A DNA stretch of 50,050 nucleotides. Source: a virus (lineage: Duplodnaviria; Caudoviricetes). The translations under genes and the position numbers were made by a program. Under the pieces are notes generated by a model that did not search any database, was not told the origin of the DNA, and saw only the letters and a list, made by a program, of their open reading frames with translations. Positions 6,253-50,050 of the stretch are shown here, piece by piece (positions within the stretch are counted from its first letter, which is position 1; the number at the start of each line of letters is the position of its first letter). The stretch covers positions 1 to 50,050 of IMG/VR virus record IMGVR_UViG_3300025676_000024, one strand, 5' to 3'.

Positions 6253-6268
6253 ACAGTTTCCTTTATCT

Positions 6269-6276
6269 TATTTATA
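6269..6276 (-). promoter_or_regulatory. T4-type late promoter TATAAATA
   Basis: Plus-strand TATTTATA upstream of the 6252 start. Confidence 0.8.
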
Positions 6277-6280
6277 ATCA

Positions 6281-11185: not shown

Positions 11186-11218
11186 TGTTTTTATTCCTAG
11201 ATAGAATCTCCATTATAT

Positions 11219-16306: not shown

Positions 16307-16339
16307 TGTGTTTCATTCCTTGTAGAAGTTTCCATAATA

Positions 16340-16347
16340 TATTTATA
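16340..16347 (-). promoter_or_regulatory. T4-type late promoter TATAAATA
   Basis: Plus-strand TATTTATA upstream of the 16306 start. Confidence 0.8.
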
Positions 16348-16351
16348 TCAA

Positions 16352-19300: not shown

Positions 19301-19648
19301 GGATGTATGCCATTGACCATTATCAAAATTAATACCATCACCTGTTGCACCTGTACAACCTGTTACTGCAATTGTTGTTCCTGTATCAAGAGTAAATGTT
19401 ATTGTTCCAAGACCATAAGAATTACCACCAGAGGTTATACCATATGAAACTCCTACTCCGATTTCACCACCAAAGTCATAATTTAGGTCAAATGTAATTC
19501 CTTCCCCAATAATTCCAGTATCACCAGTTGGTCCTAGTGGACCAGTGTTGCCAGTTGGTCCTGTAGGTCCAGTGTTGCCAGTTGGTCCTGCAATAGAACC
19601 ACTCACACTTGTTTCTTGTATTCTGCTTGAACCGTAAATTACTGGCAT
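16352..19648 (-). CDS. Cys-rich putative fibre protein with degenerate vWA domain
   Basis: 1098 aa; MPVIYGSS, then GPTGNTG collagen-like run, GACC modules and a vWA-like segment (NVMLQVDTNIEM...KILIILSNG...GVIIYAIGV...ELAT). Confidence 0.75.
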   Translation of the reverse strand: MPVIYGSSRIQETSVSGSIAGPTGNTGPTGPTGNTGPLGPTGDTGIIGEGITFDLNYDFGGEIGVGVSYGITSGGNSYGLGTITFTLDTGTTIAVTGCTGATGDGINFDNGQWHTSFEIDNTYTNHQDYSEIFSYLESNGTAGGTAYFRTLTSSGRDISIDGVTDYYIRIRGATYEYGIMGNTGELLHIYDGLSAHGSLNTFWDDDKKNLTARLTTFREAKDSVNLDSEDEITNTSSVGSSTGQTGAFVPFTYISTNIDGNTEIYSGFHMGQTHDAVLGTSTDVTHVFSNSKTTHDTQYSSASALGSCCYCTDSTVGEDYPGCVDYVTQDYCTNLGGVFDTTTCLARPEGPNCYSEGACCVNGICAETSLNKCRNVYGGFYVEGQTCIGVEILGGCPEPCQATGACCVEGSCYEMSEYQCSFESNSVFFDGGVCTGSEAVNCCLEGGIGACCVEEACYETSPAICSTLTASDGFTKGVFWGVGSRCAGPSRIGGGGINEDAAYAPFNCTWSPESGRDYDGWIADWGTGPAGLVNVDGVCLDASGTPLFGGNGLPIYPPCPTCVGWRQIIGGGPCVDESGNHVNICACEGVGYGDGPGQCYVEDLPICQPGSVDIENQCEGMCCYRTLLEGTWDCTQKTRDACSDMNDGVENIYSHIKWSGCSTNNYSLSIPIIGPPSSLGGNHLLAPECVGQNLTSSPNVMLQVDTNIEMFQLSNIIKPALTSFVDQLDSTYEKIGFNDSVFADTSVDVSLTNNYAIVKEGIHSMAIGDRVLARPLEYVGINFNSATQGTHGKILIILSNGNMRSIEEKDAAIEQARKLRDEAGVIIYAIGVNTGENSDLNFVRELATPSVDGVEEYYKTITSNEIKNTLNQIGHAISCGGEDVTTFTTTISTGSIILADLTPYECCCDHDGTDLKGLAGGNLNNGITDPNNMLCCSDTGDPCPSGYPTEELMSTCCFWRIEGEGAVNETMGRQCEWIGSEGSPAHPWLSADEVCMAIHHGTSASDLLDNNCENVNMDGCCCFNDTWSLELKGLEWLSEFDDWQIPEAGDCIEQGWGMYYAYQMNETRCDFYGGCWVHQGTCDGGVVGGECPNGNSCG

Positions 19649-19649
19649 G

Positions 19650-22600
19650 TTATTGATTAATTCCTTGGTCTGAATCTCTTAATGTTTTTGGTAAATCCCA
19701 AAGTTTTTGATTTCCATCCCCACCCGTTGCATACTTACCATCACATCTAACTAAACGAATAGGTCTTACTTTATATGTATTCTGTGTTCTATTTTTCTTT
19801 CCTACCATGAACTTATTTTCGTCTTGATTTATGTTAAATTTCATTGCCCATGCAAGAGTGCCTGGGTCAGCAGTAGAACCACCAATACCTATAACACCTT
19901 CTCCTGATGCAGTTCTTCCTTTTGTTTCATCGAATGCACCAGTGGATGTCCAATACCAACCATCAAGTGGAACAGCACCCTTTACCAACAAGGAAGCATT
20001 TAAATTGAAGTCATATGGTCTACTGGTTATACAGTTGGAAGCAATGAATGACATTTCATCATGACTTGGAACATACCACGAGGAAACTTCAGGAATATTT
20101 GAACCTGTTCCACCTGTAATAGTTGTTAAGGCATCGTCCATTAATCTTGTTGCTCTGAATGCAGAAATATAATCACTTGTCAATCCTGGACCAAAGTCCG
20201 TTGATGAGTAGTGACCATTTTTATCATCGTACCCTTTATACAAAACATTGTCAGCATTAATGATTCTGATATTATTGTAAATTCCCCATGCTCTATGCCA
20301 AAGTCCATGTGCAGACTGCAAAGGTTTTGTTGTAAGTTTCTGTGCATATCCTGTACCAAGTCTTCGTGCATTTCTACATGATGTAAATGTATGACTTCCT
20401 AAAACATTTAATGATTGTTCACCAATATTTTCATTAAACCAATATCCTTCAGAAAGTTTAAATACTGTTTCAATATATTTTTCGTTTATCTCATCAACCT
20501 GTCCTGTGTTTGGATTGTAAAGTGGTCCCCACGAACTTCCTCTATTACCCCAATAGAATTCTTGAGTCGCACCATCAAAGTCTGAATTGTTATAGTTTAC
20601 AACCTGTCTATCACCAGTTATTGCAATTGGAGATGGTGAGATTATCATATAGTATGCATCTGGTCTTGATAGTTCATCATCCTCTAATGATAATTTATTA
20701 TAATCTGGGCAACCCTTTTCTGAAGTAAAACCATATCCATGCCAGTCATATTTGGAACGATATATATCACAAGTTAATCCCAAATTGTCCGTTAAAGAAC
20801 CAGTTGCTCCAAGCATCAATTCATTCCAAGTAGCAGTTTTATCTTTACCGAAACTAGATGAACCGAATACCTGTGAACCAAATGGTCTATAAAGTCCAAC
20901 CACGATACCACCTGCATATTCATCTCCAGGCACAAGGTCTAACCCCGCGATAGATGCAACGCAACTACTATGTTCATCGGTTCTACATGTAATATCATCA
21001 CAATCTATACCAGCACCTGCATATAAGTTACCATCTTCTATACACGAACTTCCTGTAATTCCATTAACACATGTTCCACCCGAATAACAACAAGCACCTG
21101 TTCCACCATAACAAATTTCAGTTCCATTATCTAATGAACATATACTTCCTTCTCCATGAAAATGATAACCGAGTGTAAGACATCCACTTCTTGTTTTCTG
21201 TGAACATCCTCCTCTACCATCACAACATGCACCCAAACTTCTACTAGCATTATCACAGTCCATATTCCTACAGTCTGCTGATAGTCCACCGAATGAAGTT
21301 TCGACATCTAAAAGTTCACCAAGATTTATACAATCGTCTACACTTAAATCATTGAAGCATTCTATTTTTCCAGAGTTTGTATAGTGAACACAACATGCAC
21401 CTGTATCAAAACAAATACTTCCTGTCCATCCACTAGTTAATCCACCACATACTGTTGCAGAACCATGCCAATATCCTGTACACAAACCTTCTATTGTGTG
21501 TATACATTTACCTTCTCCTCTACAGCAAGCACCCGTAGAACCATCATCACTAAATGATTGTCTTTCGCTGCCGTTTATATTAACTAATCCAGTTGGATTA
21601 TCATATAAAAAGTCACCACATAAAGCATCGGGATTGTTATCATGACAGAAAAATGGGTCCTCAGAAGTGTTTTCTATTATATTAGTATCAGCAGATTTCC
21701 ATTGAACTATATTTCCGTGCCATGCGGCACCATTTGGACAAAGTATACTACCGTGGTCATGTTGAGGACCTGGACAATCAGAATATCTTGGGTCACACGG
21801 CAACCAGAAGAAATTAAATATATCTGTTCCACCACTAAAACATGGTTGTCTATCGAAAGGCCAAACAACATTGGAAAATTGGTAATTGTTTTGATTTCCA
21901 TATGTTGCACCTTTAACTATAAGTGTAAAGGATTTACCAACATCCGTTAATACACCAATATTATTTCCTGTGTAACCAAAACTAGCATCTGCAATATCAA
22001 TTATTTGTATTGGTCCAGTACTACCAACACTATAATCAAATCCGTCAAGAGTAGTTAAGTCTAGTTCAACTATACCAAACTTATTTGGTTCTAATATACC
22101 TCTAACTCCGCCAGACTGCAAATCATATGGTGGCCAGTCACCAGCATATGTTGATATTTCATATGTCGTTCCTAAACCGTCATTGTTGTGTCGGAAACTT
22201 AAATATTTTGAGTTTTCTTTATAACTTTTTAGTTTAACACTAATACCACCAGAAGTTCCACTTATATTATAAGTTGCTCCAGTAAGTCCTGTCAAATATC
22301 CACCAACTAACTGACCAGTAACACCAGAACCACCTGTAACATCTAAGTAACCAAAGTTCCCACGGTCGTAATTTAAGTCAATCGTTGGTGGTTCATTGTA
22401 TGCTGTACTTGTTAAAATACCACCAGTACCTTCAATGGTTCTGATAGTAATTTTATGGGAAGAATCTTGAACCTTAAATACTGTAGCACCACCAACGGCA
22501 TCATAAGTATTTCCACCATCTATAATAGTTTCTGTATTACCAGTAGGTCCTATAATAGAATTAGGAGTTGTCCAATTTGAAATAATAGAAGTTCCATATT

Positions 22601-22799
22601 CCCATCTTTCAAATTCTGTATAAAGTCCACCTGTTGCATTTTTATACATTGCGGTGATACCACCACCACTCCACCCAATTGGTCCCGCTACGGTTGCTCC
22701 AGAGGGCCCAGATGGTCCAGTTTCACCAGTATTACCAGTAGGTCCAGTTACTTCGGTTGTCCCTATAACTTTAAAATAACTGCTACCATATACTACCAT
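19650..22799 (-). CDS. Cys-rich putative fibre protein with C-terminal DUF1566/Lcl (CLec-fold)-like domain
   Basis: 1049 aa; MVVYGSS, then collagen-like GPTGNTGETGPSGPSGATVAGPIG, four GACC modules and the C-terminal pattern WYVPSHDEM...WYWTST...AWAMKF...VRPIR. Confidence 0.75.
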   Translation of the reverse strand: MVVYGSSYFKVIGTTEVTGPTGNTGETGPSGPSGATVAGPIGWSGGGITAMYKNATGGLYTEFERWEYGTSIISNWTTPNSIIGPTGNTETIIDGGNTYDAVGGATVFKVQDSSHKITIRTIEGTGGILTSTAYNEPPTIDLNYDRGNFGYLDVTGGSGVTGQLVGGYLTGLTGATYNISGTSGGISVKLKSYKENSKYLSFRHNNDGLGTTYEISTYAGDWPPYDLQSGGVRGILEPNKFGIVELDLTTLDGFDYSVGSTGPIQIIDIADASFGYTGNNIGVLTDVGKSFTLIVKGATYGNQNNYQFSNVVWPFDRQPCFSGGTDIFNFFWLPCDPRYSDCPGPQHDHGSILCPNGAAWHGNIVQWKSADTNIIENTSEDPFFCHDNNPDALCGDFLYDNPTGLVNINGSERQSFSDDGSTGACCRGEGKCIHTIEGLCTGYWHGSATVCGGLTSGWTGSICFDTGACCVHYTNSGKIECFNDLSVDDCINLGELLDVETSFGGLSADCRNMDCDNASRSLGACCDGRGGCSQKTRSGCLTLGYHFHGEGSICSLDNGTEICYGGTGACCYSGGTCVNGITGSSCIEDGNLYAGAGIDCDDITCRTDEHSSCVASIAGLDLVPGDEYAGGIVVGLYRPFGSQVFGSSSFGKDKTATWNELMLGATGSLTDNLGLTCDIYRSKYDWHGYGFTSEKGCPDYNKLSLEDDELSRPDAYYMIISPSPIAITGDRQVVNYNNSDFDGATQEFYWGNRGSSWGPLYNPNTGQVDEINEKYIETVFKLSEGYWFNENIGEQSLNVLGSHTFTSCRNARRLGTGYAQKLTTKPLQSAHGLWHRAWGIYNNIRIINADNVLYKGYDDKNGHYSSTDFGPGLTSDYISAFRATRLMDDALTTITGGTGSNIPEVSSWYVPSHDEMSFIASNCITSRPYDFNLNASLLVKGAVPLDGWYWTSTGAFDETKGRTASGEGVIGIGGSTADPGTLAWAMKFNINQDENKFMVGKKNRTQNTYKVRPIRLVRCDGKYATGGDGNQKLWDLPKTLRDSDQGINQ

Positions 22800-32577: not shown

Positions 32578-33012
32578 TTATCTTACCTTCTGTAATGTTA
32601 CTTGTAAAGTGTCCGATAGTTTGGACTTTCTTCCGTTAAGAATAGTGTAGTTGATTGTCATATTCAATTGATTTCTAGTCCCCGAACTTCCTTGTTTTGC
32701 AACATCCGAATCTTCTTCAAAAATAACAGAATCAATAACTGCTCTGGGTTCAAATCTAGAAACTTGAATCTTTATATCTTTTTCCACGAGTTTGGATTGG
32801 AGTGGAGTCCACAACTCAAATAACTTCTTACGAATACCTACACCAAACCTGTCATTAAATCTTTTTTCACCCGGAGAGGTAAGAACTATATTCATAATAG
32901 ATTGTCTAATTGCATTCCTATCACCAACAACAGAGATATCGTTATTGAACACATTTTTATTTAAATCTATATCAAAATCTATGAATTGAAAATCTGATAC
33001 TGTCATTGGCAT
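32578..33012 (-). CDS. gp25: Baseplate wedge / sheath initiator (GPW/gp25 family)
   Basis: AIRQSIMNIVLTSPGEKRFN..FG..I...LFE, FEPRA motifs. Confidence 0.92.
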   Translation of the reverse strand: MPMTVSDFQFIDFDIDLNKNVFNNDISVVGDRNAIRQSIMNIVLTSPGEKRFNDRFGVGIRKKLFELWTPLQSKLVEKDIKIQVSRFEPRAVIDSVIFEEDSDVAKQGSSGTRNQLNMTINYTILNGRKSKLSDTLQVTLQKVR

Positions 33013-33034: not shown

Positions 33035-33856
33035 TCAATTCCATATCCAGTTCCAAATCTCACCAAAGAAACCTAAAGATTCACTCTCATTTGGGTCCAT
33101 CGGACTACTATCTCTGATTAAAGTGCAATACATTTCATGCTGTCCACCCCTTTTCATCGAGTGCTGAATTTCTGCAAGTAACCATCTACCACCCATTCTT
33201 CTTTCTTTTCCCGAACCAGGATTTTGATTTGTTATGTTAATTATTTCTCCAGGCCTCAAACTCAAATCTCCACTCAACATAATTACGGCTTGTTGAGAAT
33301 TTATCAGAGTCATTTGAGCATCTCTCCATAAAGGAGTTTCGTTAGGAGTATCCCAATATGTTGCACTGGTTCTTGTATATTCAATATACTTTTTAAAGTT
33401 CTCACCTACACAGGGACAATCACAACTGCTAGGATGGTGTTGGTCTTTCCATAAACATCCCATCCATGATTCGGCATCAGGTAGTGAAGACGATTTAATA
33501 TAATCGCATTCTTTTATAGATTCTATAGATTCTCTTATTTGGTCTTTTGTTGGTTCAGTAACAGCCTTATCACCCCAAATCCAATTCCAAACGGTTTCTA
33601 CAAGTAGTCCCCCAATTCCAGCATACCACGGAAAATCAATTTTATTTTCTACTTTAGAGGGGTCAAGATGTTTAGTACATTCTGGGCAATTACAAAAAGG
33701 GTCATCATCAGGACAATCTGAATTGTCTACTGGACCCTCTGGATTAGCACACGGATAGTTATCATCAAACGCACCGACAGAATGACCCAACTTGACACTA
33801 GGCCATTCGGTGTTAGCAAAGTGAGTGAGTTTTACTAGAAAGTCATGTTCTGCCAT
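33035..33856 (-). CDS. C-terminal part of gp27-like baseplate hub (separate gene)
   Basis: SQQAVIMLSGDLSLRPGEIINI...GGRWLLAEIQH...CTLIRDS is the hub/GpD C-terminal pattern; own AGGAG RBS and late promoter; Cys-rich N-terminus. Confidence 0.7.
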   Translation of the reverse strand: MAEHDFLVKLTHFANTEWPSVKLGHSVGAFDDNYPCANPEGPVDNSDCPDDDPFCNCPECTKHLDPSKVENKIDFPWYAGIGGLLVETVWNWIWGDKAVTEPTKDQIRESIESIKECDYIKSSSLPDAESWMGCLWKDQHHPSSCDCPCVGENFKKYIEYTRTSATYWDTPNETPLWRDAQMTLINSQQAVIMLSGDLSLRPGEIINITNQNPGSGKERRMGGRWLLAEIQHSMKRGGQHEMYCTLIRDSSPMDPNESESLGFFGEIWNWIWN

Positions 33857-33871
33857 ATATTTCTCCTAATC

Positions 33872-33879
33872 TATTTATA
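33872..33879 (-). promoter_or_regulatory. T4-type late promoter TATAAATA
   Basis: Plus-strand TATTTATA in the gap between the 1384-aa gene and the hub C-terminal gene. Confidence 0.8.
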
Positions 33880-33883
33880 CAAT

Positions 33884-36800
33884 TTATAGACATACTATAC
33901 CATTTCTTGTGTTTAAACAGTTACATTTACATCCTGCATCAATGCATTCTTGTGGGCAAGTTTGTTGTGGGATTTCTGGTGTTCCGGCATCAGGTGTTCC
34001 GGCATCAGGTGCAGGTGTTAGGGGTAGGGGGCAATTGGTACAACCACCCCAATAATCATAATACCAAACACCGCGGTGACCGCCGAAAAAACCGTCTTGT
34101 AAGCACTCAGCCTCTGCTATTGAGTCGCATCCAAGAGGGGTTGTATTTTCGACACAAGTCCAAGGTTCAAAACAACCACCGTCCTCGCAATCACTACACC
34201 ACACACAACAATCACCAGAGCAAGTGTTGTTGCCATCGTTGCATTGTGAGCAAGGACTGTCATTGACTCCGGGAAACCAAATGTACAAGTCCAATTCACT
34301 ACCAAGTTGTTCACACTCAACATCCGTCAGATTATCTATGCACTCACTGCCGGCGCAACACCCACCTCTCCAAGGTCCACAAGGTGTATTGTCAAAACCA
34401 CAATCAAGATAGCCATTATGGAATGTTCCACCAATATTATTACAAAGCGTGCTGTTAGTTATATGACACGACCCACAATCATCAGTACAACATGCTCCCT
34501 CTGTTATGTCACTACTACACATACAACAACAAGAATCGAACTCTCCTGTTTGTTCATGTGTGTAATTATAAAACCATCCACCCGGTCCGAGGGGGTCATT
34601 TACACAGTACTCCCAAACACAGTACCATTCTCCCGAACAATGACAACCTGCATCATTGCAATCAGGCCCCTGTCCAGAACAGTTTTCGACACCCCCATCC
34701 AGATTTGTTGTACAACATGTTCCTTTGTCTAGGTCACATTGGTAGTTGTTCGGGTCAACACCCGAGCCGAAGCAAGCATCACCGTTAAGCCAAGTTCCCT
34801 CCAACTTAGCACATGCAATCTGAGTTAACTCAATGCAACCAGCACTACCAACACAACAACCACCAAGTGCATCTGGGTCGCATAGTGTAGGGTTCTCCCA
34901 GCAAGAATCGTCAGGTTCTCCTGATGAACAATCATACGCAGTCCATTCACCTTCCCAACCATTATCATCATAACTTGCTTCGCATTCATTTTCAAATGTG
35001 CAATCCTGGCAAGAACAAGCACCACCATCAGGAATACAACTATGACAACAATATCCAGTGCTACACATTGAAGTTTCTCCTTCAACATCACACTGCGAAC
35101 CTTGAGTATAATATACCACTGGATGGGGAGGTGGACCTTTTAATTCATCCAGACATTCTTGTTCGTTGGCAACATTTTTACAATGTCCAACACAACTGAC
35201 TGGATGGGTATTATCTTCTACATCAAAACATTCAGAAATACAACAAGAACCAAACCCTTCACAATCAACCTGCTCACTACCAGACACTCCATCACAAAAA
35301 CAATCCTCGCAGGGATTCCATGATGGAGTTCCGTTACAGTTTTCACCGTGGTTGAAATGCAAACAACTCCATTGTCCCCATAAATAACTCGTACTTAAAC
35401 AGGAACTTACATCATCTATACAACAACACGAACCACAACAAGTAACTTCACTGCAATCCTTTTCTGCATGAAATGAATTGGGTTGAATTTCCGTACCGCC
35501 TAGTTGCATTCCCATTGTGAAGCATTCTTCTATTGTTACATTACCTACACAACAACATTCGCCCTGCTCACCACACTCTCCATACGATATATCGACACAA
35601 CAGGCACCAAATTCTTCAGTACATCCACTTGTGTCGCATGGGTTAGAAGAACATGATAAATCCGAATTCCAAAATCCACCCGCATCTTCACACTGTGTGT
35701 CCGTCAGGTCCTGACAACTTTCACAGTTTTCTAATGCTCCAGGAATACAACATGCCCCATACACAGGCGGTTGGGTGCAATCAGCATCTGCACAAGCAAC
35801 ACCATCATCCTCATAATTACCACCACTATTATTACACTGTATGTTCGTTAGGTCCTGACAACTACCATCTTCAAAACAACATGCACCAGTATCAAATTCA
35901 CAATCATTGCAAGTTGAATTTTCACCCATCCAATCACCATCCAAAGCAACACAATCTGATTCTGTAAAGTCTTCAAAACATGTATCACCTGTTTCAACAC
36001 AACACGCACCCAATGGGTCGCATAGGTTTGCATTACTCTCACAAGAAACATCTTCGTGAAAGTTTTTTTGTCCAACGGCTTTTTCACACTCGTGTTTTCT
36101 TACATCATTATTACATTCCCCAAAATTAGGATAGTCGCAACACGCACCAGTGACATAACAAGCCTTACAAGTATCATCAGGATATTCATCACCAGTGAGT
36201 GTCCACATATCTTCAACATCTTCTGGTTCAAATCCAGCATCTTGTGCAAGTCTACAACATTCATATTTGTATACTAAATTAGGTTTATCATTAGTGAATC
36301 CTTCGTCCTCACTCAAACAACAAGTTATGTCTGTAAGGGGGTTTGCAGAACATCCTAGGTCTAAAGAACAACATAATTTTTTATCTTGTTCTATACAATC
36401 AATATCTCCACATGTCAAATCACAAGAACCAATACCACTTGGATGAACTGCTTCTGGACCCCACCAAATGCCAGGCAATCTATTTTCGTTTTCATCTTCA
36501 TATTCAAAACATTCCCAGACAGTAACATCGTCTAGACAATCACCGTTTGGTAAACAACACGGCGCAGTTGGAAGACATGGATTTTCAGAAGTATAATTTT
36601 CTGGGTCTTTGTTATCCCAATAACTATCACTCTCTGTGCATGAATAGGTTGGCATCTCACCACCAAGAAAATCGTCACACATAAATCTCCAGAAATCACT
36701 GTTACATGCTCTTAGTTTTAATGTTTCTGCATCAAAACCATACTCATACATTGTAGTGTTGTATGTTTCTTGTTCCCACCAACTCAATGGAATTTGTGAA

Positions 36801-38038
36801 TTGGTTGCACCCCACACATTTGAATCATATACAACAACGACTGCACCGTCACCATTAGGTTTCCATACTACTGTACATCCTTCACCATTACAATGTCCTA
36901 CTAATCCTTGACCTTTTCCTCTTGGAAGGAGTCCACTACTAGAAGAACAATGAAACGAAAATGATTTAAGTGGGTCGTCTTCAGTATCTCGTTTTAGAAA
37001 TGGTCTTTTCGACCTTTGACAACAAGACGATGTACTTATATCTATCAAGTTCCACCAAACAGATTCAACTTCAAAATTGTTTATAAAGTTTTCATCTCTT
37101 TCTACATCATAATATTCATCATCTCTAAATCTAAAGAATTCTTCTATTTCTTCTTCATCTTCTTGTTGCGCGCAATACAGTGCAAAGTTTCTTAATAGTT
37201 CTGCTACTTGTAAACCAGATAAAGGCTCTGCATCGTCACCATCTAGACACTTAGTAGTATAATAATTTGAATCATTAAAGAATCCTATCTTCTCTTTACA
37301 TTCTGTTCCGAGCATTGGACTTCCACTGGATTCTCCCATGACAATTAATTTACCACCAGACCTAACCCATTCACGGATTTCAGGCCAATCACTTTCGGGT
37401 GGTGGAACAGTAACAATGTCAGAACCACATAACGGACCGTTGAAGTATCCACTGCCGTCTGTATTCTCATGTTGAGAACCAAAGTTCTTTCCGATAGCAC
37501 CAACGAATGCCAATTTATGACAACCAAGATTACCTCCACTACCAAGAGTACAATGCATTGTACAATCACCTTTTGGTAATAGTGGTCCTTCCCAATTGTC
37601 TATCCAATCTGTAAATGCTTGTGGTGACCATGGGAGAAGTCCCATAGGAGAATCGTATTGATAGAATGTAGATTTTGGAATAATCTTTTCATGAAAAGAA
37701 TAAGTTGGGTCATTGATGTATTCTGTCCAACAACTATTCCACTCACATTCTTCAGGATAATACTCCCAATCTTTTTCTCCCGGATGCCAACAAAGATTTC
37801 CATAATGTAAACCATCTGGATGGCCATCACTCGCTTTATCCCTCCAATCCCAATCGGAATCTCCCTGGTTCGGTTCGGGTGCGGTAGGAGCAAATTCTTC
37901 AAAGTCCCTTGCACTAGTTGTAGTTGTGCCCAATGCACATATAGGACAGTTTGCTTCACCACCGTTATAACGATATTCGTTATCCCAATCTTTACAAGGT
38001 TTATCCCCGCAACAGCAACATGTTTTATATGTTCTCAT
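33884..38038 (-). CDS. Giant Cys-rich (GxCC-repeat) protein with class-I-GATase-like/DUF4350-like domain
   Basis: 1384 aa; starts MRTYKTCCCC; EIREWVRSGGKLIVMGE...GDGAVVVVYDSNVW; many GACC/GSCC modules in the C-terminal 900 aa. Confidence 0.72.
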   Translation of the reverse strand: MRTYKTCCCCGDKPCKDWDNEYRYNGGEANCPICALGTTTTSARDFEEFAPTAPEPNQGDSDWDWRDKASDGHPDGLHYGNLCWHPGEKDWEYYPEECEWNSCWTEYINDPTYSFHEKIIPKSTFYQYDSPMGLLPWSPQAFTDWIDNWEGPLLPKGDCTMHCTLGSGGNLGCHKLAFVGAIGKNFGSQHENTDGSGYFNGPLCGSDIVTVPPPESDWPEIREWVRSGGKLIVMGESSGSPMLGTECKEKIGFFNDSNYYTTKCLDGDDAEPLSGLQVAELLRNFALYCAQQEDEEEIEEFFRFRDDEYYDVERDENFINNFEVESVWWNLIDISTSSCCQRSKRPFLKRDTEDDPLKSFSFHCSSSSGLLPRGKGQGLVGHCNGEGCTVVWKPNGDGAVVVVYDSNVWGATNSQIPLSWWEQETYNTTMYEYGFDAETLKLRACNSDFWRFMCDDFLGGEMPTYSCTESDSYWDNKDPENYTSENPCLPTAPCCLPNGDCLDDVTVWECFEYEDENENRLPGIWWGPEAVHPSGIGSCDLTCGDIDCIEQDKKLCCSLDLGCSANPLTDITCCLSEDEGFTNDKPNLVYKYECCRLAQDAGFEPEDVEDMWTLTGDEYPDDTCKACYVTGACCDYPNFGECNNDVRKHECEKAVGQKNFHEDVSCESNANLCDPLGACCVETGDTCFEDFTESDCVALDGDWMGENSTCNDCEFDTGACCFEDGSCQDLTNIQCNNSGGNYEDDGVACADADCTQPPVYGACCIPGALENCESCQDLTDTQCEDAGGFWNSDLSCSSNPCDTSGCTEEFGACCVDISYGECGEQGECCCVGNVTIEECFTMGMQLGGTEIQPNSFHAEKDCSEVTCCGSCCCIDDVSSCLSTSYLWGQWSCLHFNHGENCNGTPSWNPCEDCFCDGVSGSEQVDCEGFGSCCISECFDVEDNTHPVSCVGHCKNVANEQECLDELKGPPPHPVVYYTQGSQCDVEGETSMCSTGYCCHSCIPDGGACSCQDCTFENECEASYDDNGWEGEWTAYDCSSGEPDDSCWENPTLCDPDALGGCCVGSAGCIELTQIACAKLEGTWLNGDACFGSGVDPNNYQCDLDKGTCCTTNLDGGVENCSGQGPDCNDAGCHCSGEWYCVWEYCVNDPLGPGGWFYNYTHEQTGEFDSCCCMCSSDITEGACCTDDCGSCHITNSTLCNNIGGTFHNGYLDCGFDNTPCGPWRGGCCAGSECIDNLTDVECEQLGSELDLYIWFPGVNDSPCSQCNDGNNTCSGDCCVWCSDCEDGGCFEPWTCVENTTPLGCDSIAEAECLQDGFFGGHRGVWYYDYWGGCTNCPLPLTPAPDAGTPDAGTPEIPQQTCPQECIDAGCKCNCLNTRNGIVCL

Positions 38039-38054
38039 AATATAAGTATACTAA

Positions 38055-40244
38055 TTAAGAAAGACACCCACACAGTCCATCGTGTGCATTCGGAACATCG
38101 AAGAAGTATATGTCTTTTGGAATGGTTGGGTCTGGGTCACCCAATGGGTCTTCTTCGCTTGGAGCAATCGTTCCCTTTACAACATCTCCGTCTTCATTTA
38201 ATTCTCCTAGCATGTAGTTAGGAATTCTATACATCTGTACGATGTGATGTTTCATGGTCCAAGGTCCATCCATTATACCATTTTCATCTAAGTCTTCTAA
38301 TGCACATGGGTCTACTAACATATCAGCACCATCGGGAACTTGAAAATATCCACCTACTGGCATCATTTGATATGATTCAGGATAATCATTAAACTCCAAA
38401 TCAGCAACATTAATACCAGGACCAACATTAACATTAGGACCTACTGTTTCATTCATTAATTCATTTAAATTGTAAGCAGGATTTGTCCACTCTGATTCTG
38501 AAGTGGGATTATTTTCTCTGAATGTTCCTGCTAGACCTTGACCTTCAGGTGGTTTAACAATTTTCACTGGTGAACCTAATGGACTAATGACTGTACCCAA
38601 ATTGTCTTCCACATGGTCACTAGGCCATATCTCAACTTCTCTCCAAGAATATTCGTAGATTCCACCCCTGTCATCTCCTGTAACCTTTTTTGCATCTTCA
38701 ATGACTGCAAGAAACACAAAAGGTTTAATAGATTGTTTATCACAACAAATCGAGTGTCTGTACACATTAAACTTTTCTTTAAGATTAACTACTTGAAGGT
38801 GTGCTTTAATACTATCAGATGTTGGTTTTTTAATTTCTTCTTGAATGATTTTTATTTTTTCCCCTTCAAGATTTGTTTGGTCAAACATGCTCTGCCAAAG
38901 TTTATCATTTTGCTTCCCTTGCTTTCCTTCTAGTGCCGCAGAGCCAAGAAAATCATAAGACTTTTCTCCATGATAATTATACGGAGAATCAAAATATCCA
39001 TACAGTCCAGTTACATCATGTTTCCTTATAGACTTTCTTTCTATATTTACTGGATTCTCAACCTTGATAGAAGTGTCTATACTGTCTGGAAGAAGTTTAA
39101 ATTGTTCTACCCTTCCACCGACTGTATGGTCACCCCATTTTCCATCTTCTCCCTTTCCACTTGTATTAACTTCATGATAACCATATGTAATAATTTCTCT
39201 GCCTCCCCAATCAGTTGACAGCGGATGCGTGTGTGAAGTAGTAAAATCCATATAGTCAAAATATGGGTCTTCATATGATGGTTTTATTCTTTCATAGTAT
39301 GCTGTGTATGCGCCAGACTTAAACGCATTCAAATGGTCGTACTCACTACAGTTTATTATCGCTGCAATTTTCGTATTACCTTTTGTTTCATCCTCATCAT
39401 CTTTCATAGAAACTTTATATTCGTTTTTTCCACCATGCACACCACCATAAAGAACACCCTTTTCGTTTGCATCTTTAATCATCTTTCTAATTGATTTAAA
39501 ATGCCATCCATCCAGGTCTGCATAGAATAAATAATTTACTCCACTCAAGTCTTCCGTAACAGCATTTTCAGAAAGGTTATTCATTAGTTGCATAAGGTTT
39601 GGTGGATGAACATCTTTACCCCAAGGATACATGCTTTGATTTTTTTTCAACCATATCCAGTTGTGTGTTTTTTCAATGTCCATTGGGTTTTTGGCGTTAG
39701 AAAATCCTTCTACAGCACCGGGGTTTAAATATTTTTCTGCTAACTCATTCACCAAACCCTCCTCACCCTCCTCACCTGCAATTGGTCCAATAAAATCTTT
39801 ATCCATATAATCCAAATTGTCCCAATCTAATATGTAACTTTCGCAGGAAACAAATTCAACATCCCATCCTGCTCCAAATCTTGCACTTGGTCCAGATACT
39901 GCATCCAATGCTTCATTGCCTGTTGCTCTTACATCATTCACACAAAAGGTTAATGTATGTTCAGAATTTTCAATCTCTGGAGATTCCATTTCTATCTTTA
40001 CAAATTCATGACCCGTCATATTAAAGTAATCACCTACTGTATTTGGTTCTTTGAATTTTAAAGAACCAACTATTCCATTACGCATTATATTTTCATTGAT
40101 TTGCATACTAACGAATATTTCATCCATCACCTTATCGTCCCCTTCACTTGTAGGTGCAGGTATAATTTGAAGTTTATTACCACTTCGTTGATTTTCTATA
40201 ACTATTTTTTTAATATTAATTTCTGATGGAGTTTGCTTTGCCAT
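38055..40244 (-). CDS. N-terminal part of gp27-like baseplate hub fused to an extra C-terminal domain
   Basis: Follows gp53; INENIM..GIVGSL..TGHEFVKIE, FVS.E, DIEKT, YLFYADLDGWHFKSI are typical of T4-like hub N-termini; the hub C-terminus is missing and the ORF ends NAHDGLCGCLS. Confidence 0.7.
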   Translation of the reverse strand: MAKQTPSEINIKKIVIENQRSGNKLQIIPAPTSEGDDKVMDEIFVSMQINENIMRNGIVGSLKFKEPNTVGDYFNMTGHEFVKIEMESPEIENSEHTLTFCVNDVRATGNEALDAVSGPSARFGAGWDVEFVSCESYILDWDNLDYMDKDFIGPIAGEEGEEGLVNELAEKYLNPGAVEGFSNAKNPMDIEKTHNWIWLKKNQSMYPWGKDVHPPNLMQLMNNLSENAVTEDLSGVNYLFYADLDGWHFKSIRKMIKDANEKGVLYGGVHGGKNEYKVSMKDDEDETKGNTKIAAIINCSEYDHLNAFKSGAYTAYYERIKPSYEDPYFDYMDFTTSHTHPLSTDWGGREIITYGYHEVNTSGKGEDGKWGDHTVGGRVEQFKLLPDSIDTSIKVENPVNIERKSIRKHDVTGLYGYFDSPYNYHGEKSYDFLGSAALEGKQGKQNDKLWQSMFDQTNLEGEKIKIIQEEIKKPTSDSIKAHLQVVNLKEKFNVYRHSICCDKQSIKPFVFLAVIEDAKKVTGDDRGGIYEYSWREVEIWPSDHVEDNLGTVISPLGSPVKIVKPPEGQGLAGTFRENNPTSESEWTNPAYNLNELMNETVGPNVNVGPGINVADLEFNDYPESYQMMPVGGYFQVPDGADMLVDPCALEDLDENGIMDGPWTMKHHIVQMYRIPNYMLGELNEDGDVVKGTIAPSEEDPLGDPDPTIPKDIYFFDVPNAHDGLCGCLS

Positions 40245-40269: not shown

Positions 40270-41274
40270 TTATATGAAAGTTACTAATTTAGTAGTTCCT
40301 CTTGGAACATTACCTTTTAATAAGTATTCTACTTCATTAGCAACCAAATTTGCTAAAGTTCTATTTAATAGTTTAATAATTTTATTTCTATCATTATCAT
40401 ATACTAGTTCTTCCTCAACAGTAATTATAGAAACTTCCTCTGGTAACGATACACCTGTCATATATTTATATAACAAAGTTCCAGTTAATCCACACATATT
40501 ACGAAACTGAAAATAGTCGTGAGTTAGTCCGTCAGTAGTATAGGGATTTAGTTCATCTATTCTATCACCACTCTTATATGAAAATCTAGAAACACCTTCT
40601 TTAATAGAAGTTTTCTTTTGTATCTTTGCAAATGTTGCACCAGCAGTTGCACATAAAGGGGCAGCATTTGAATCGGGTGCAGTAAATGCAGTACAACTTG
40701 TTGCACCCACATTTTGTCTAAAGCAACCAGTTTGCCCAAACCCAGATGTAATTTGATTAGTCCACTGTCCCTGCTCATCCAAACCAAATGCACAAATTTC
40801 ATGTCCTTCAGAAATAGTACCCACTTTTCTTTTTACATTTATTCTATGTAAAAGTCTATCATAAGAATCTACTACTCCAAAATGGTCTACATCAATCCCA
40901 CCAGTTGCACCTACATCTCTCTTAACAACTATATCACCTTCAGAAATGTCCAAGTCTTCTAACACAAAATAACTATCTCCATTTAAATAATTATTGAACA
41001 ATGATTTTATTTGAGATTGGGATTTAGGCCATTCTGAATTCACATCAGACATACTATTTGAAAATAATACCAACCACCAATATTTTGAACTTCCATAATA
41101 ACTTCTTGCTACATCGTCTGGTCTAGAACCTTCTGGTACTAATACCTCTACAAAGTTTTGGGCTTCCTCAAGTGTCTTATCCGTAAATTTTACTCTACGA
41201 AAAATATCCACCATTTCTAAATCGGGCAAACCAGGAAAACTATAATTAATATTTTCCATTTTTTCAAAATACAT
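40270..41274 (-). CDS. gp53: Baseplate wedge subunit
   Basis: MYF..M..INY, DIFRRVK, EGSRPDDVA..YYG..KYWWLVL..N, EWPKS, NDRNKIIKLL. Confidence 0.9.
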   Translation of the reverse strand: MYFEKMENINYSFPGLPDLEMVDIFRRVKFTDKTLEEAQNFVEVLVPEGSRPDDVARSYYGSSKYWWLVLFSNSMSDVNSEWPKSQSQIKSLFNNYLNGDSYFVLEDLDISEGDIVVKRDVGATGGIDVDHFGVVDSYDRLLHRINVKRKVGTISEGHEICAFGLDEQGQWTNQITSGFGQTGCFRQNVGATSCTAFTAPDSNAAPLCATAGATFAKIQKKTSIKEGVSRFSYKSGDRIDELNPYTTDGLTHDYFQFRNMCGLTGTLLYKYMTGVSLPEEVSIITVEEELVYDNDRNKIIKLLNRTLANLVANEVEYLLKGNVPRGTTKLVTFI

Positions 41275-44042: not shown

Positions 44043-44213
44043 ATGGTACAACACCACAAATATAACCTATCTGAATTAGAAAATCTCATTCCGTGGGAAA
44101 GAGATGTGTATTTGGCTCAATTGATTGAATATATAGAAATAGAGAATGAGAGAATAAAATTAGCACACATAGAATCTGAAAGGGCTGGTTCAAGAACAAA
44201 TATTACGAGGTAA
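44043..44213 (+). CDS. gp51: Baseplate hub assembly catalyst (possibly made as a gp26-gp51 frameshift fusion)
   Basis: Below the ORF-track cutoff; hand translation MVQHHKYNLSELENLIPWERDVYLAQLIEYIEIENER...; the frame is open upstream to 43983. Confidence 0.88.
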   Translation: MVQHHKYNLSELENLIPWERDVYLAQLIEYIEIENERIKLAHIESERAGSRTNITR

Positions 44214-44218
44214 ATTAA

Positions 44219-45658
44219 ATGAAGAATAAAAAGAAAATTAAACAAAATATTATTTCCCATTTCAATAAAAGAAAGAATGGAAGTGTGGTCAATATAGTTC
44301 CAAAAGATAAAAATCCGATACCCAACATAATTAAGCCAATTGAAAAAGAAAAGCAGGAACAACCGAAGAATAAAAATTATATTCCAACAGAATTTAATGA
44401 AGCAATATTAAAATTAAATAAAAAAATAGAATTTATTACCAACCGACCAAATGATTATCTCAACACAAAGACAATAGAGAAGCATTATTATACAGATACT
44501 AATAATAACAAGACAATAGAGAAGCATCACACAGATACTAATAATAACAAGACAATAGAGAAGCATCACACAGATACTAATAATAACAAGACAATAGAGA
44601 AGCATCACACAGATACTAATAATAACAAGACAATAGAGAAGCATCACACAGATACTATAACAGATACCAAAAACAACAATACAATAGAGAAGCATCATAC
44701 AGATACTAAAAATAATCAAAGAATAATTAATATTCCAAAGGAAATTAAAATTCCTACTGTAATAACTCCAGCACCAATAAAAGAAAGAAGTTCAAATAAT
44801 AAAGAAACCAAAAATATAAAAAATGTACAGAACAATATTAAAAAAATGTTATTTCAGAATTTTAGAGATATAACCAAAAACAACAATGTAACCAAAAATA
44901 ACAATATAACCAAAAACAAGAATGTAGATAAAAATAACAATATAACCAAAAATAACAATATAACCAAAAACAAGAATATCGAATTACCAACAATAATAAA
45001 CAACACAAAAAATAATAAAAACCCTTTATCTTATACAATAAACAAAACTAATATATCAAATAAAGAATTATCAAATATACTAGAAAGAAATACAGATACC
45101 AATACCAACAAAACAAATAATAAATATTTTACTATAGATAAGTCAACAGTAAATAAAATATTATCTGGTAAAGCACAAGTTCCTAAAACTATACCTGCAT
45201 ATGGTGAAGGCACACCGGCAGGTTCACCAGTTGCAAGAACATTTGGTGGGAAATTGGCTTTACTGGCTGACAAAGGTGAAGACGAAATAGTGACACCAGT
45301 GTCAAAGATAAAAGCAGCCGAGCAGACTCGTGGACTGGTCGGCCGTGAACGCCAACAATCCCCAGCCATTGCATTCAAGCCATACGCACTCTCGCGCGTA
45401 AAGAACCAAGAGAAAGCATTATCTCAGTTGCACGCCGATTCAATAATGGAAAATACAGAATTAAAACATCTTAATACTTCCACGGGGGATAAAGAACAAT
45501 CACAACCCGGCCCACCATCCATTATCAATAATAATACGACTAATAATGGAAACAACAGCAGCGACGGTCCCTCTCAAGGTTTTGGTGGAGGCACTAAAGC
45601 AACCGAGTCTATGGGATTACAAACTCAATATCCAATATGGCGTAGAGGGTTTGGTTAA
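44219..45658 (+). CDS. Low-complexity Asn/Lys/Thr-rich protein at the tape-measure (gp29) position
   Basis: Directly after gp51; LLADKGEDEIVTP resembles the GE.GPE.V.P motif of tape measures, and PSIINNNTTNN resembles T4-like gp29 tails; function inferred from synteny. Confidence 0.55.
   Translation: MKNKKKIKQNIISHFNKRKNGSVVNIVPKDKNPIPNIIKPIEKEKQEQPKNKNYIPTEFNEAILKLNKKIEFITNRPNDYLNTKTIEKHYYTDTNNNKTIEKHHTDTNNNKTIEKHHTDTNNNKTIEKHHTDTNNNKTIEKHHTDTITDTKNNNTIEKHHTDTKNNQRIINIPKEIKIPTVITPAPIKERSSNNKETKNIKNVQNNIKKMLFQNFRDITKNNNVTKNNNITKNKNVDKNNNITKNNNITKNKNIELPTIINNTKNNKNPLSYTINKTNISNKELSNILERNTDTNTNKTNNKYFTIDKSTVNKILSGKAQVPKTIPAYGEGTPAGSPVARTFGGKLALLADKGEDEIVTPVSKIKAAEQTRGLVGRERQQSPAIAFKPYALSRVKNQEKALSQLHADSIMENTELKHLNTSTGDKEQSQPGPPSIINNNTTNNGNNSSDGPSQGFGGGTKATESMGLQTQYPIWRRGFG
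44468..44716 (+). repeat. 39-bp coding tandem repeat (KTIEKHHTDTNNN), about 6 copies
   Basis: aagacaatagagaagcatcacacagatactaataataac is perfect at 44510, 44549 and 44588, with degenerate flanking copies. Confidence 0.95.
44870..44977 (+). repeat. 18-bp coding tandem repeat (ITKNNN-like), 6 copies
   Basis: ataaccaaaaa(c/t)aa(c/g)aat units encode ITKNNN VTKNNN ITKNKN VDKNNN ITKNNN ITKNKN. Confidence 0.9.
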
Positions 45659-47055: not shown

Positions 47056-48486
47056 ATGACAGATATAACAGACAATATTTTAATCACTACTAGTGGCGAT
47101 ACCGCATCCATGGCAACCGACTATGGAAATGCAGGGACTGGCTTTACAAACTCTCACATTCCTATCTCAAAGATTGCATGGGGCGATTTAGACAATGGAT
47201 ATAGGACTTCACTTACAAACCCACTTCCAATACAAATATCAGGTCAAACTGGACCGTTAGAAGTTAGTATAACCAGTTCAACTGGGGCACTCACCAACAT
47301 TAAAATACGGAACTATGGTTATATTGGCGCAACTGCTGGATTAGAATATATTGCAGTTTCAGGAAATACTACTGGAACACAAGCAGTTGGTATATCTGGT
47401 TGGATTCAAGGTGTAACAAATGGAATTCCTGTTATTATTGCAACAACTGGACCATCAAACGGTGACTATTCAACAGGTATACATTTAAGAGGTGCAATGG
47501 CAAGTGATGGTGCAAGTTATGGACCAACATTCGGTGGTACATTTGGTACTGCGCTAGGTATCCTCGTACAAGGAACTTCAGCAGGTGCAACAGCAACAGT
47601 TGCAGGGGAAGTATTCCCAGGCTATGGATTCGGTGTTCCTATTGCAGTCACCGCAGGACGAAGACTCGGAAAAGATACCGACATGATTACCGTAACTGGT
47701 GATGTTGGAACTAGTAGAGAATGGACAACTTCTGTAGCAACAGATTCTATTGCGGTATATGGTGCAGACGCAACAAAATATGTTCGTGCCAATCTTTATG
47801 GAAGCACGCTAGATTCCTCTATAATTGGAACATCTGGAGATGCACTTAAAGTTGCAGTTGTAAACGGTGGAATTACATTCAGTGTAACTATGGGGGCAAC
47901 TATAGATGTAGGGGTAACTGCATCGGGTGGTGCATTAAGAATCCAAGGAACAACAGGAACATGGGGCGACCCAGTTACCATTCGTGGTGAACAAGCGGGT
48001 GCTGTTGATGTTGTTTCAACCGCTGGATTGTCAACCACAATATCTGGAACTGTTACTATAGACGATAATGATATTCTACAAGAACTCAAAGGAACAACTG
48101 GAGAACTCATTGGTGGTCTAAAAAATATTAAAACTGGAACAGACCAAATATCTGCAATCCGTACAGATTTAAAGAGTGGTAGTGTAAGAACTACAATTTC
48201 TTCTATAACAAAACCAGAAAATCTTCGAGCAGGTAATAAGAAAGTATTAAACGATGCAACAAGCCTTCATAACGGAATGGAACTATTAACTGGTGTTACT
48301 ATTAAAAACTTAATAACAAGTGGCACAGATGTTTGGGTTGGTTCAAACACAATACAATCAAATCCAACTAATGGATATTTGTTAGAGCCAGGAGAAAGTA
48401 TCTACCTAGAAATTAATAACTTAAAACACATATATTGTAGAAAAGATGGCGACCAATCGGCAACCCTACACTATATTGGAACTTGA
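47056..48486 (+). CDS. Gly/Thr-rich putative virion protein
   Basis: 476 aa; KIAWG...NPLPIQ N-terminus; many G-x-T motifs; C-terminal GVTIKN...VWVG...NGYLLEPGES..LEINNL..IY beta domain; GGAG RBS. Confidence 0.75.
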   Translation: MTDITDNILITTSGDTASMATDYGNAGTGFTNSHIPISKIAWGDLDNGYRTSLTNPLPIQISGQTGPLEVSITSSTGALTNIKIRNYGYIGATAGLEYIAVSGNTTGTQAVGISGWIQGVTNGIPVIIATTGPSNGDYSTGIHLRGAMASDGASYGPTFGGTFGTALGILVQGTSAGATATVAGEVFPGYGFGVPIAVTAGRRLGKDTDMITVTGDVGTSREWTTSVATDSIAVYGADATKYVRANLYGSTLDSSIIGTSGDALKVAVVNGGITFSVTMGATIDVGVTASGGALRIQGTTGTWGDPVTIRGEQAGAVDVVSTAGLSTTISGTVTIDDNDILQELKGTTGELIGGLKNIKTGTDQISAIRTDLKSGSVRTTISSITKPENLRAGNKKVLNDATSLHNGMELLTGVTIKNLITSGTDVWVGSNTIQSNPTNGYLLEPGESIYLEINNLKHIYCRKDGDQSATLHYIGT

Positions 48487-48493
48487 TTAAAAT

Positions 48494-50050
48494 ATGTCGT
48501 TAAGTATTCATAATAGAAATTCTAGACGAAAAAGTAAAAAACCAAGCGAACAAAAGGAATTGGTTGGTCAGGCATCCTTTATAGGTTGCGATTTTGTTAC
48601 CAGAATATCCGACATCGTTGACAGCGTAGAATCTTTTTCGGTAAATCCTAATATTCTTTTTAAAGGTGATAGTGTTTTAGTGGACTATGGTGATGCACTA
48701 AAAGGAAGAAAGAGAATTAAAGATGAAATCACAACCTTCTTTGAAGCAACAGCAGTCAAGGGAGATACCCTTACATTAACCGATGGTGAATTTATTAACG
48801 AAGGTCTTGGGGATGCAGAAATAAAGAATCTGTCTGGTACTTACATATTTGAGAAATGGAATCCCACCACAGGTATAGCATTGCTTACTAAAGTTTCTGT
48901 AAAGAATGAAAGTTCAACATACTCTAGATACGACAAAAACTTTTTTATTAATGGCTCTTTAAAATGGACCACATCATCAAGCACACAAGAAAACAAAACA
49001 GAACAAATCAACGAGTTAGTTAATCGTATTGGTAAACATTCTGCAAACTCTTTTTCTTCAGTATTTAAAACGGTCAAACCAAACGATACACTGGACATTA
49101 AAGTAGGAAGCAGTATATCTTCTTATACGGTTTCTTCATACTATGTCGATGCAGAAGGTATGGAACATATAGAATTAATTGAAGATGTCCCTACAGATAC
49201 AACTTTATTTGGCAGTGAAGTGTTTATTATGTTAAGAAGAAGAAAAGAAGAAACAGAAGAAAAAAGTAGAAGACCTTCTTTGCCAATTGCAATTGGTGGT
49301 GCAGGTGGTGGTGGTGCAGGTGGTGGATTTAATCCAAGTACTCCACTGATGTCACCAAAAAAAGATACGGGAACTGCTCAACCAAAAGAAATATCAGATT
49401 TAGTAAAGTCTGCAAAGGATACACTTGCTTCGATAAAGAACAGAAAAACAACACAAACATCTACTGTTAAAACATCTCCTGTTAATAGTTCTATATCATC
49501 AAGTCTTCAGGGTGCAACAGAAAAATGGCAACAATCTGGAAAGAAGACATTCCATGTTTCTATAGAAAATGATAGTAAAGGTTCTTGGTCATATGTAATT
49601 GACGGAAAAACAAAACCCACATTAGAATTAGATGCAGGCAAAACTTATAAGTTCAATATTTCTCATATATCAAACGGTATAAAGGGGTTTACAAATATGT
49701 ACCATGAATTTATTATTATGGGAGAACAAGGAGTAAGTCTTAAACCCGGCAGTCATGTTCGTTCTTCAGCAAAGATAGGAACTAGAGGAGCATATGTTTA
49801 TATTACAATACCAACAAATAAAAACATTTTAAAATATTTGTGTAAGGAAAGAACTGTATTGGGTGGTGGTATAGAAGTTGCCAATACCAGAAAACAGCCA
49901 AGACAAAGTACACAAAAACAACCTTGTCGAGAGGGATATCATTTGATGCCAGCAGACGGTGACCATGATGCCCCTTGGTGCATGAAAGGTAAAACCCATT
50001 CAGATTCAGAGACATTACCAATAAGAACTTCTACCACTTCTCAAAGAAGT
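48494..50050 (+). CDS. Hypothetical protein (3'-truncated) with cupredoxin-like domain
   Basis: Not in the ORF track; open from ATG at 48494 (MSLSIHNRNS...) to the window end; Gly linker, then YVIDGKTKPTLELDAGKTYKF...YHEF...GAYVYITIP...YLCKERTVLGGGIEV and EGYHLMPADG. Confidence 0.75.
   Translation, partial: MSLSIHNRNSRRKSKKPSEQKELVGQASFIGCDFVTRISDIVDSVESFSVNPNILFKGDSVLVDYGDALKGRKRIKDEITTFFEATAVKGDTLTLTDGEFINEGLGDAEIKNLSGTYIFEKWNPTTGIALLTKVSVKNESSTYSRYDKNFFINGSLKWTTSSSTQENKTEQINELVNRIGKHSANSFSSVFKTVKPNDTLDIKVGSSISSYTVSSYYVDAEGMEHIELIEDVPTDTTLFGSEVFIMLRRRKEETEEKSRRPSLPIAIGGAGGGGAGGGFNPSTPLMSPKKDTGTAQPKEISDLVKSAKDTLASIKNRKTTQTSTVKTSPVNSSISSSLQGATEKWQQSGKKTFHVSIENDSKGSWSYVIDGKTKPTLELDAGKTYKFNISHISNGIKGFTNMYHEFIIMGEQGVSLKPGSHVRSSAKIGTRGAYVYITIPTNKNILKYLCKERTVLGGGIEVANTRKQPRQSTQKQPCREGYHLMPADGDHDAPWCMKGKTHSDSETLPIRTSTTSQRS

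Follow-up and report, generated by a model that had tools for sequence, protein, structure and literature searches.

A gp27-type baseplate hub encoded by two genes, with variable content at the cut, in an uncultured marine T4-like phage and its relatives

The hubs of T4, T5, 80alpha and the type VI secretion system (T6SS) are given as single proteins in PMC10721106, which also describes the hub domains of lambda (gpL/gpJ) and RcGTA (gp13/gp15) as distributed over two genes with others between them (K and I in lambda), a Cys-rich part beside the cut binding an iron-sulfur cluster on four Cys. Within these accounts, split hubs with intervening genes are already known. In the corresponding passages of PMC3004832, VgrG of type VI secretion is a gp27-gp5 fusion, its hub continued by a beta module with variable cargo beyond, and the second barrel of T4 gp27 comprises residues 207-239 and 307-368. 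The locus analyzed here belongs to an uncultured marine T4-like phage represented by the linear 50-kb record IMGVR_UViG_3300025676_000024 (positions 1 to 50,050, hereafter the window; 23% complete), which is present in marine metagenome runs. It consists of three open reading frames (ORFs) on the minus strand, bounded by gp53 and gp25 and correctly placed by a first-pass annotation of the window: the N-terminal part of a hub (hub-N), a Cys-rich middle gene and the C-terminal part of the hub (hub-C).

The hub is encoded by two genes that together tile a gp27-type hub, and the cut separates two parts of its second beta-barrel. The account that we favor, and consider probable, is that this two-gene hub is rebuilt by its shared barrel, that a module at the end of hub-N replaces the base of the gp5 needle, and that the middle gene docks via its N-terminal cysteines as a host-binding cargo. 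The demonstrated part of this model comprises the gene anatomy, the mapping onto the hub fold and the conservation.

A hub fold divided between two genes

As the first-pass annotation had proposed, a gp27-like hub lies here in two genes. Both outer ORFs match the hub family phrog_350, over non-overlapping profile positions 173-276 (E 7e-18) and 348-435 (E 4e-9), and gp53 lies directly upstream, in keeping with membership of this family. The two halves also tile solved hubs without overlap, hub-N and hub-C covering respectively residues 1-253 and 257-325 of the R2 pyocin hub, 17-263 and 272-337 in P1, 2-259 and 267-340 in MuSo2, 3-270 and 275-342 in AFP, and 3-268 and 279-346 in PVC; hub-N is aligned across ~260 columns of T4 gp27. 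The gp27 order of two tube-like barrels and two middle domains is thereby supplied jointly, by hub-N for positions 1 to ~260 and by hub-C for ~260-340, and the single polypeptide of the gp27/gpD/VgrG hub family is replaced by ORFs 4.2 kb apart. Hidden Markov models of the halves match the N- and C-terminal parts of four out of four one-gene hubs from cultured Kyanoviridae, and a fused relative gave weak tblastn matches to Kyanoviridae hubs. Searches with tblastn of both halves against 50,697 GenBank phages gave no match, Foldseek of hub-C returned nothing with E below 0.001, and PDB sequence searches with alignments A1, A2, A3 and A4 returned nothing below E 0.4.

Because the cut splits the second barrel, strand complementation, and not Cys bridges, is the likely route of reassembly, and hub-N and hub-C very probably rebuild the hub in this way; three chains of each would then form a pseudo-sixfold ring. 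The split accounts for annotation overlooking the hub in these genomes.

Architectures among relatives

Both halves are present in 61 of 77 IMG/VR loci, as three or more genes in 41, as one fused ORF in 14 and as two genes in 6. Distinct loci number 26, 12 and 4, respectively, without L060, a locus with Ns at its break that was excluded from these counts and from the first hub tree and was included, labeled by insert type, in later trees. For hub-N, the searched length range contained 57 homologues, 52 of them with H-D-G-x-C at the end, and hub-C has 78. The fused single-ORF relatives anticipated by the first-pass annotation thus exist (14 of the 61 loci, and four full-length fused proteins among six hub-C matches). 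These proteins measure 1588-2016 amino acids (aa) in total. CC on one side and YxCxN on the other border the position of their insert, which coincides with the cut; the insert is 872-1320 aa long, contains 0.6-2.7% Cys and is related by BLAST neither to the module nor to the middle protein of the window.

The idea that the split is arranged around the middle gene did not hold. The halves are adjacent without it in 5 of the 61 IMG/VR loci, and around three distant members (P0150, P0175 and P0163) hub-C follows hub-N immediately in 21 of 22 loci, the remaining one being truncated. The Cys-rich gene is therefore an optional passenger and not the cause of the split. Five loci (L054, L055, L062, L067 and L074) have no middle gene and instead carry GxCC repeats in frame inside the hub-N module, ~400 aa between its halves, which brings hub-N to 975-1029 aa; hub-C overlaps the hub-N stop in this group. 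In two further loci a 1390-aa ORF (L169:5820-9992, L170:5823-9998) stands directly before hub-N, at the place of gp53 in other loci.

Quick trees of the hub and of four flanking genes each show three changes of architecture. An enlarged hub tree, with 19 distant split-type and 5 fused-type proteins labeled by domain content without genomic context, requires five, at least two of them forced by starred branches. The four canonical hubs are separated, with support 99, from a single group of inserted and split hubs, and a single origin of the split was neither rejected nor shown by the approximately unbiased test (p 0.082). The simplest reading is that a loop of the hub turned into an exchange point for two kinds of cassette.

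The first-pass annotation had argued for an evolved fission against an assembly error. Its second half stands: contigs of three of the four runs examined (X3 and X4, from a study that may be the source of the window, and X5, from another) bridge both 33856-33884 and 38038-38055, a junction check made on contigs and not on raw reads, with no alternative letters at the junctions among the rows listed, and the layout is shared by 41 loci down to ~32% identity. Such artefacts do occur, as the apparent two-gene locus L060 with its fused-type insert illustrates, but for the window the chance of one is practically negligible. The direction implied by fission is less secure, fused and split types being interleaved on the tree. 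The promoter motif and the AGGAG invoked in the same argument are both found ahead of hub-C, and the motif TATAAATA, which we take to be a T4 late promoter, is by itself modest evidence, since it occurs 11 times in the window with 5.2 expected and 2 of 100 shuffles reached as many. Of 30 distinct split loci, 9 have a TATAAAT no more than 40 nucleotides (nt) from the hub-C start, in one of them overlapping the start codon. The three ORFs might instead be joined into a single chain, as in the fused relatives, at a stage after transcription or after translation, by splicing, intein-like trans-splicing or recoding. This would suit the existence of these relatives and the cysteines close to the ends; it is nevertheless very improbable, since the insert of fused hubs shows no relation to module or middle protein, no fused ORF with module and hub-C is present among 73 module matches or six longer hub-C matches, the spacers vary from -8 to +31 nt without a fixed frame, and hub-C has its own AGGAG.

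Module, cargo and cysteines

The C-terminal module of hub-N measures ~225 aa, with strands at 510-520, 530-536, 590-592, 667-675 and 711-715 in an AlphaFold2 (AF2) model. Its profile gave 73 matches among 1.84 billion representatives, the long ones consisting of hub-N plus module and none including hub-C; it was not found in GTDB genomes, and the best ESM Atlas value (0.87) is uninformative. According to PMC10038345, myophage tubes end in an OB domain that closes them, and the spike comes after it, so something must fill that role here. We infer that the module sits where the gp5 OB domain sits in T4. Whether it closes the tube as gp5-OB does stands, in the model, at about an even chance; helix 461-498 would bring it to the axis, and three copies together would shut the tube there. 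The strand pattern is compatible with gp5 OB, hhalign against eight gp5 N-termini gave a probability of 0.2%, and a whole-model fold search barely covered the module.

No gp5 lies between gp53 and gp25 in the window. A gp5-OB profile built from eight sequences, which recovered three cultured-phage gp5 that had helped to build it, gave no match below E 4.1 in the window or in 157 other clade loci (2.15 Mb, including 122 kb of the 123-kb record G001; 59 of loci L001-L077 span gp53 to gp25). PHROGs revealed no gp5 among 99 further proteins of records G001-G003, and profile searches (Pfam and PHROG) gave no match at all in the module or the middle protein, hence none to a lysozyme or triple beta-helix. 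A PF06714 search of five records had no match, controls included, and is hence uninformative.

The middle protein of the window contains 154 Cys (11.1%) and 14 GxCC motifs. Its residues 1-470 have no Pfam or PDB match, the ESM Atlas offering DUF4960 (0.93, 142 of 256 features) as a weak lead only, and no near-identical two-copy repeat, the sign of a diversity-generating retroelement, occurs in the gene among the 20 largest repeat families. The 146 loci sampled, 114 of which have the tail, provide 50 distinct junctions, and 49 of these show an N-terminal CCC in the middle gene, against 0 of 341 other annotated genes; it is retained on seven middle genes without a match to the profile of the window's N-terminal domain, the 17 matching genes having built that profile. 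One cargo bears a Pfam VWA domain. Elsewhere, cargo is divided into two ORFs of ~500 aa (L018 and L023), and a 157-aa Cys-poor ORF (L049:16006-16482, L052:16367-16840) stands between a cargo of 2600-2750 aa and hub-C.

The repeats of the middle protein resemble those of five Cys-rich genes at 4552-22799 (minus strand), with DNA repeats D9, D11, D14 and D17 in common. These five genes encode 566-1695 aa with 3-12% Cys and 3-22 GxCC; two have VWA domains, four begin with Gly-x-Thr-rich stretches, and those at 6281-11185 and 11219-16306 have paralogous N-termini, with 75-84% DNA identity over two 300-nt blocks.

Conserved Cys sets stand on both sides of the cut. C500-C501 is invariant in 54 aligned hub-N proteins, and the two Cys motifs of hub-C are present in 12/12 fused, 4/4 two-gene and 25/26 three-gene loci; canonical one-gene hubs have 0-3 Cys. 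Fused hubs have these cut-flanking cysteines as well, so that the CC ahead of the cut and the motifs of hub-C are marks of the clade and not an adaptation to the split; in fused and split forms alike, they may hold the insert closed at its base. The CCC is another matter, its co-conservation being the best sign of a docking tag facing the DGxCxC tail of hub-N. The middle protein, encoded by the next gene, would bind the module tail via CCC and project its ~15 acidic Cys-rich repeats as an adhesin. It is probably a virion tip protein; that it is held through a metal or disulfide junction between DGxCxC and CCC has a chance a little short of even.

The first-pass annotation went further, placing Cys contacts at every junction. 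Its description of Cys-rich ends was accurate except that hub-C starts with MAEHDF, CANP lying at residues 36-39. That all three chains are joined mainly by inter-chain Cys, including the middle C-terminus to hub-C, would explain why every chain end near the junctions bears Cys and why DGxCxC and CCC are conserved together, but this scheme did not survive comparison and is quite improbable: of 25 distinct middle genes only 4 have the C-terminal CxCxCL..VCL, which makes a conserved contact with hub-C there unlikely, the hub-C motifs are shared by all 12 fused hubs, and nearly all the distant loci lack the middle gene. Another conceivable, if improbable, case is a split hub that reassembles, with a common type of fibre or adhesin gene settled between its halves; the product of this gene would bind elsewhere on the baseplate, and its CCC would fold within its own chain. 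The repeats shared with the five other Cys-rich genes and the presence of the hub-N tail without a middle gene fit such a fibre; those five genes, however, do not start with CCC, the CCC is found on unrelated bodies and in one position only, and one lineage has GxCC repeats inside the module, which ties such cargo to the module.

Docking of a tip protein onto a gp5-replacing module is the preferred reading, and several points weigh against it. The module as a gp5 OB homologue has no hhalign support, genome-wide absence of gp5 is not proven, G001 being only 68% complete, the Cys-bearing hub-N tail persists where no CCC gene follows, and the CCC junctions are related by descent. A bolder version is tentative and rather unlikely as a whole: a large uncultured T4-like branch would have dropped gp5, the grafted module would close the tube, and CCC-tagged exchangeable tips would clip on through an inter-chain metal-thiolate (zinc or iron-sulfur) site on the threefold axis. 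Should CCC act as a docking signal, it would be a short, naturally occurring handle by which tip proteins can be exchanged, and it would indicate which gene is likely to set host range in an abundant, unannotated group of aquatic phages; if the gp5-free reading is true, it amounts to a plug-in receptor-binding system for contractile tails.

Genomic setting and comparison with known systems

Features of the hub locus and its flanks (window positions)
Feature	Position	Strand	Basis or remark
gp53 baseplate wedge subunit, upstream flank	40270..41274	-	phrog_232, PF11246
hub-N ORF, 729 aa	38055-40244	-	
hub-N residues 1-501: first tube-like barrel, middle domains, first part of second barrel (gp27-type), long helix 461-498, invariant C500-C501	38742..40244	-	
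hub-N residues 502-729: beta-strand module, no fold assigned, C-terminal N-A-H-D-G-x-C-x-C	38058..38741	-	AF2 strand pattern, alignment A3
Middle gene, 1384 aa	33884-38038	-	
Middle protein N-terminal CCCC, residues 7-10	38009..38020	-	sole feature common to nearly all middle genes
Middle protein residues 1-470: conserved domain of one cargo family	36629..38038	-	alignment A4
Middle protein residues 492-1384: ~15 acidic GxCC-type repeats, mostly 40-75 aa	33884..36565	-	
TATAAATA (33872-33879), T4-type late promoter consensus, and AGGAG (33863-33867), ahead of hub-C	33863..33879	-	
hub-C, 273 aa: Cys-bearing N-terminal part, then last part of second barrel (residues 175-250, nt 33107-33334)	33035..33856	-	
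hub-C N-terminal-part cysteines: C36, C48, C55, C57, C117, C134, C145, C147			
gp25 baseplate wedge subunit, downstream flank	32578..33012	-	phrog_261, PF04965

The minus strand of the window carries gp48, gp53, the three hub-locus ORFs, gp25, gp6, a gp7-like gene, further baseplate genes, the five Cys-rich genes and gp13-gp16, and the plus strand gp26, gp54 and a head-completion gene. The phage is assigned to the T4-like myoviruses by gp13-16, gp6, the gp7-like gene, gp25, gp53, gp48, gp54, gp26 and gp32 in the window, its gp6 having ~25% identity to the best-covered matches. No tRNA was found, and no RNA dataset is among the listed runs carrying the window. On the plus strand, gp26 and a 56-aa ORF (44043-44213, presumably gp51-like) are followed by a 479-aa Asn/Lys/Thr-rich ORF with 39-nt and 18-nt tandem repeats (44219-45658), possibly the tape-measure gene by position. 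Beyond gp32 there are two long plus-strand ORFs (47056-50050), one of 476 aa, Gly/Thr-rich and without a Pfam or PHROG match, the other of 519 aa and open at the contig end. The close relative G001 has sheath, tube, major head protein and late sigma factor, and also a run of ~20 genes (L078-L079, C1:8000-29000) with nucleotide-sugar epimerases, aminotransferases and glycosyltransferases, which might glycosylate the virion or alter the host surface. A tandem pair of tail-sheath-like genes (417 and 418 aa) is found in record G002 (L086:19-2573), and short sheath genes occur likewise in G001 (432 aa) and G003 (406 aa).

In the accepted view, hub and gp5 spike form the unchanging core of contractile tails. 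The present clade retains the baseplate of T4 but has its hub divided inside a barrel and no recognizable gp5, and what is found at the cut varies: an in-frame insert of 900-1300 aa, a separate gene of 264-2745 aa, repeats within the module, or no addition. In the full texts searched (few subscription papers, supplements excluded), no published description was found of a contractile T4-like tail that lacks gp5, carries exchangeable cargo and has its hub cut within the second barrel.

The hub resembles those of Kyanoviridae (phrog_350) and T4 gp27 in sequence profile and fold, and its place after gp48/gp53 is shared with BUCT-ZZ01 (by gene size and order), Melnitz and Mosig. The Kyanoviridae hubs are encoded by one gene (412 aa in BUCT-ZZ01, 425 aa in S-8S56, 483 aa in Melnitz and Mosig), form one chain with the few Cys noted above, and are followed by gp5 in three of the four records viewed. 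Unlike these and T4, the present hub consists of two chains divided ahead of the last half-barrel, with additional Cys motifs and an additional module, and no gp5 was found with it. In VgrG the OB domain follows a complete hub, whereas the module here precedes the last half-barrel, itself a separate gene, and has no hhalign support for OB homology. VgrG, as presented in PMC3004832, resembles the present hub in that a beta module extends the hub fold within the same chain and variable cargo lies further out. With lambda and RcGTA, in the sections of PMC10721106 already cited, the locus shares a hub spread over two genes with one or more genes between them and a Cys-rich part beside the cut. Their tails are non-contractile and their cut follows the first barrel (HDI), whereas here the tail is contractile and T4-like and the cut falls within the second barrel, hub-N holding ~260 of 320-380 hub residues and lambda gpL matching only hub-N 2-136; and the intervening gene, unlike theirs, is a variable cargo.
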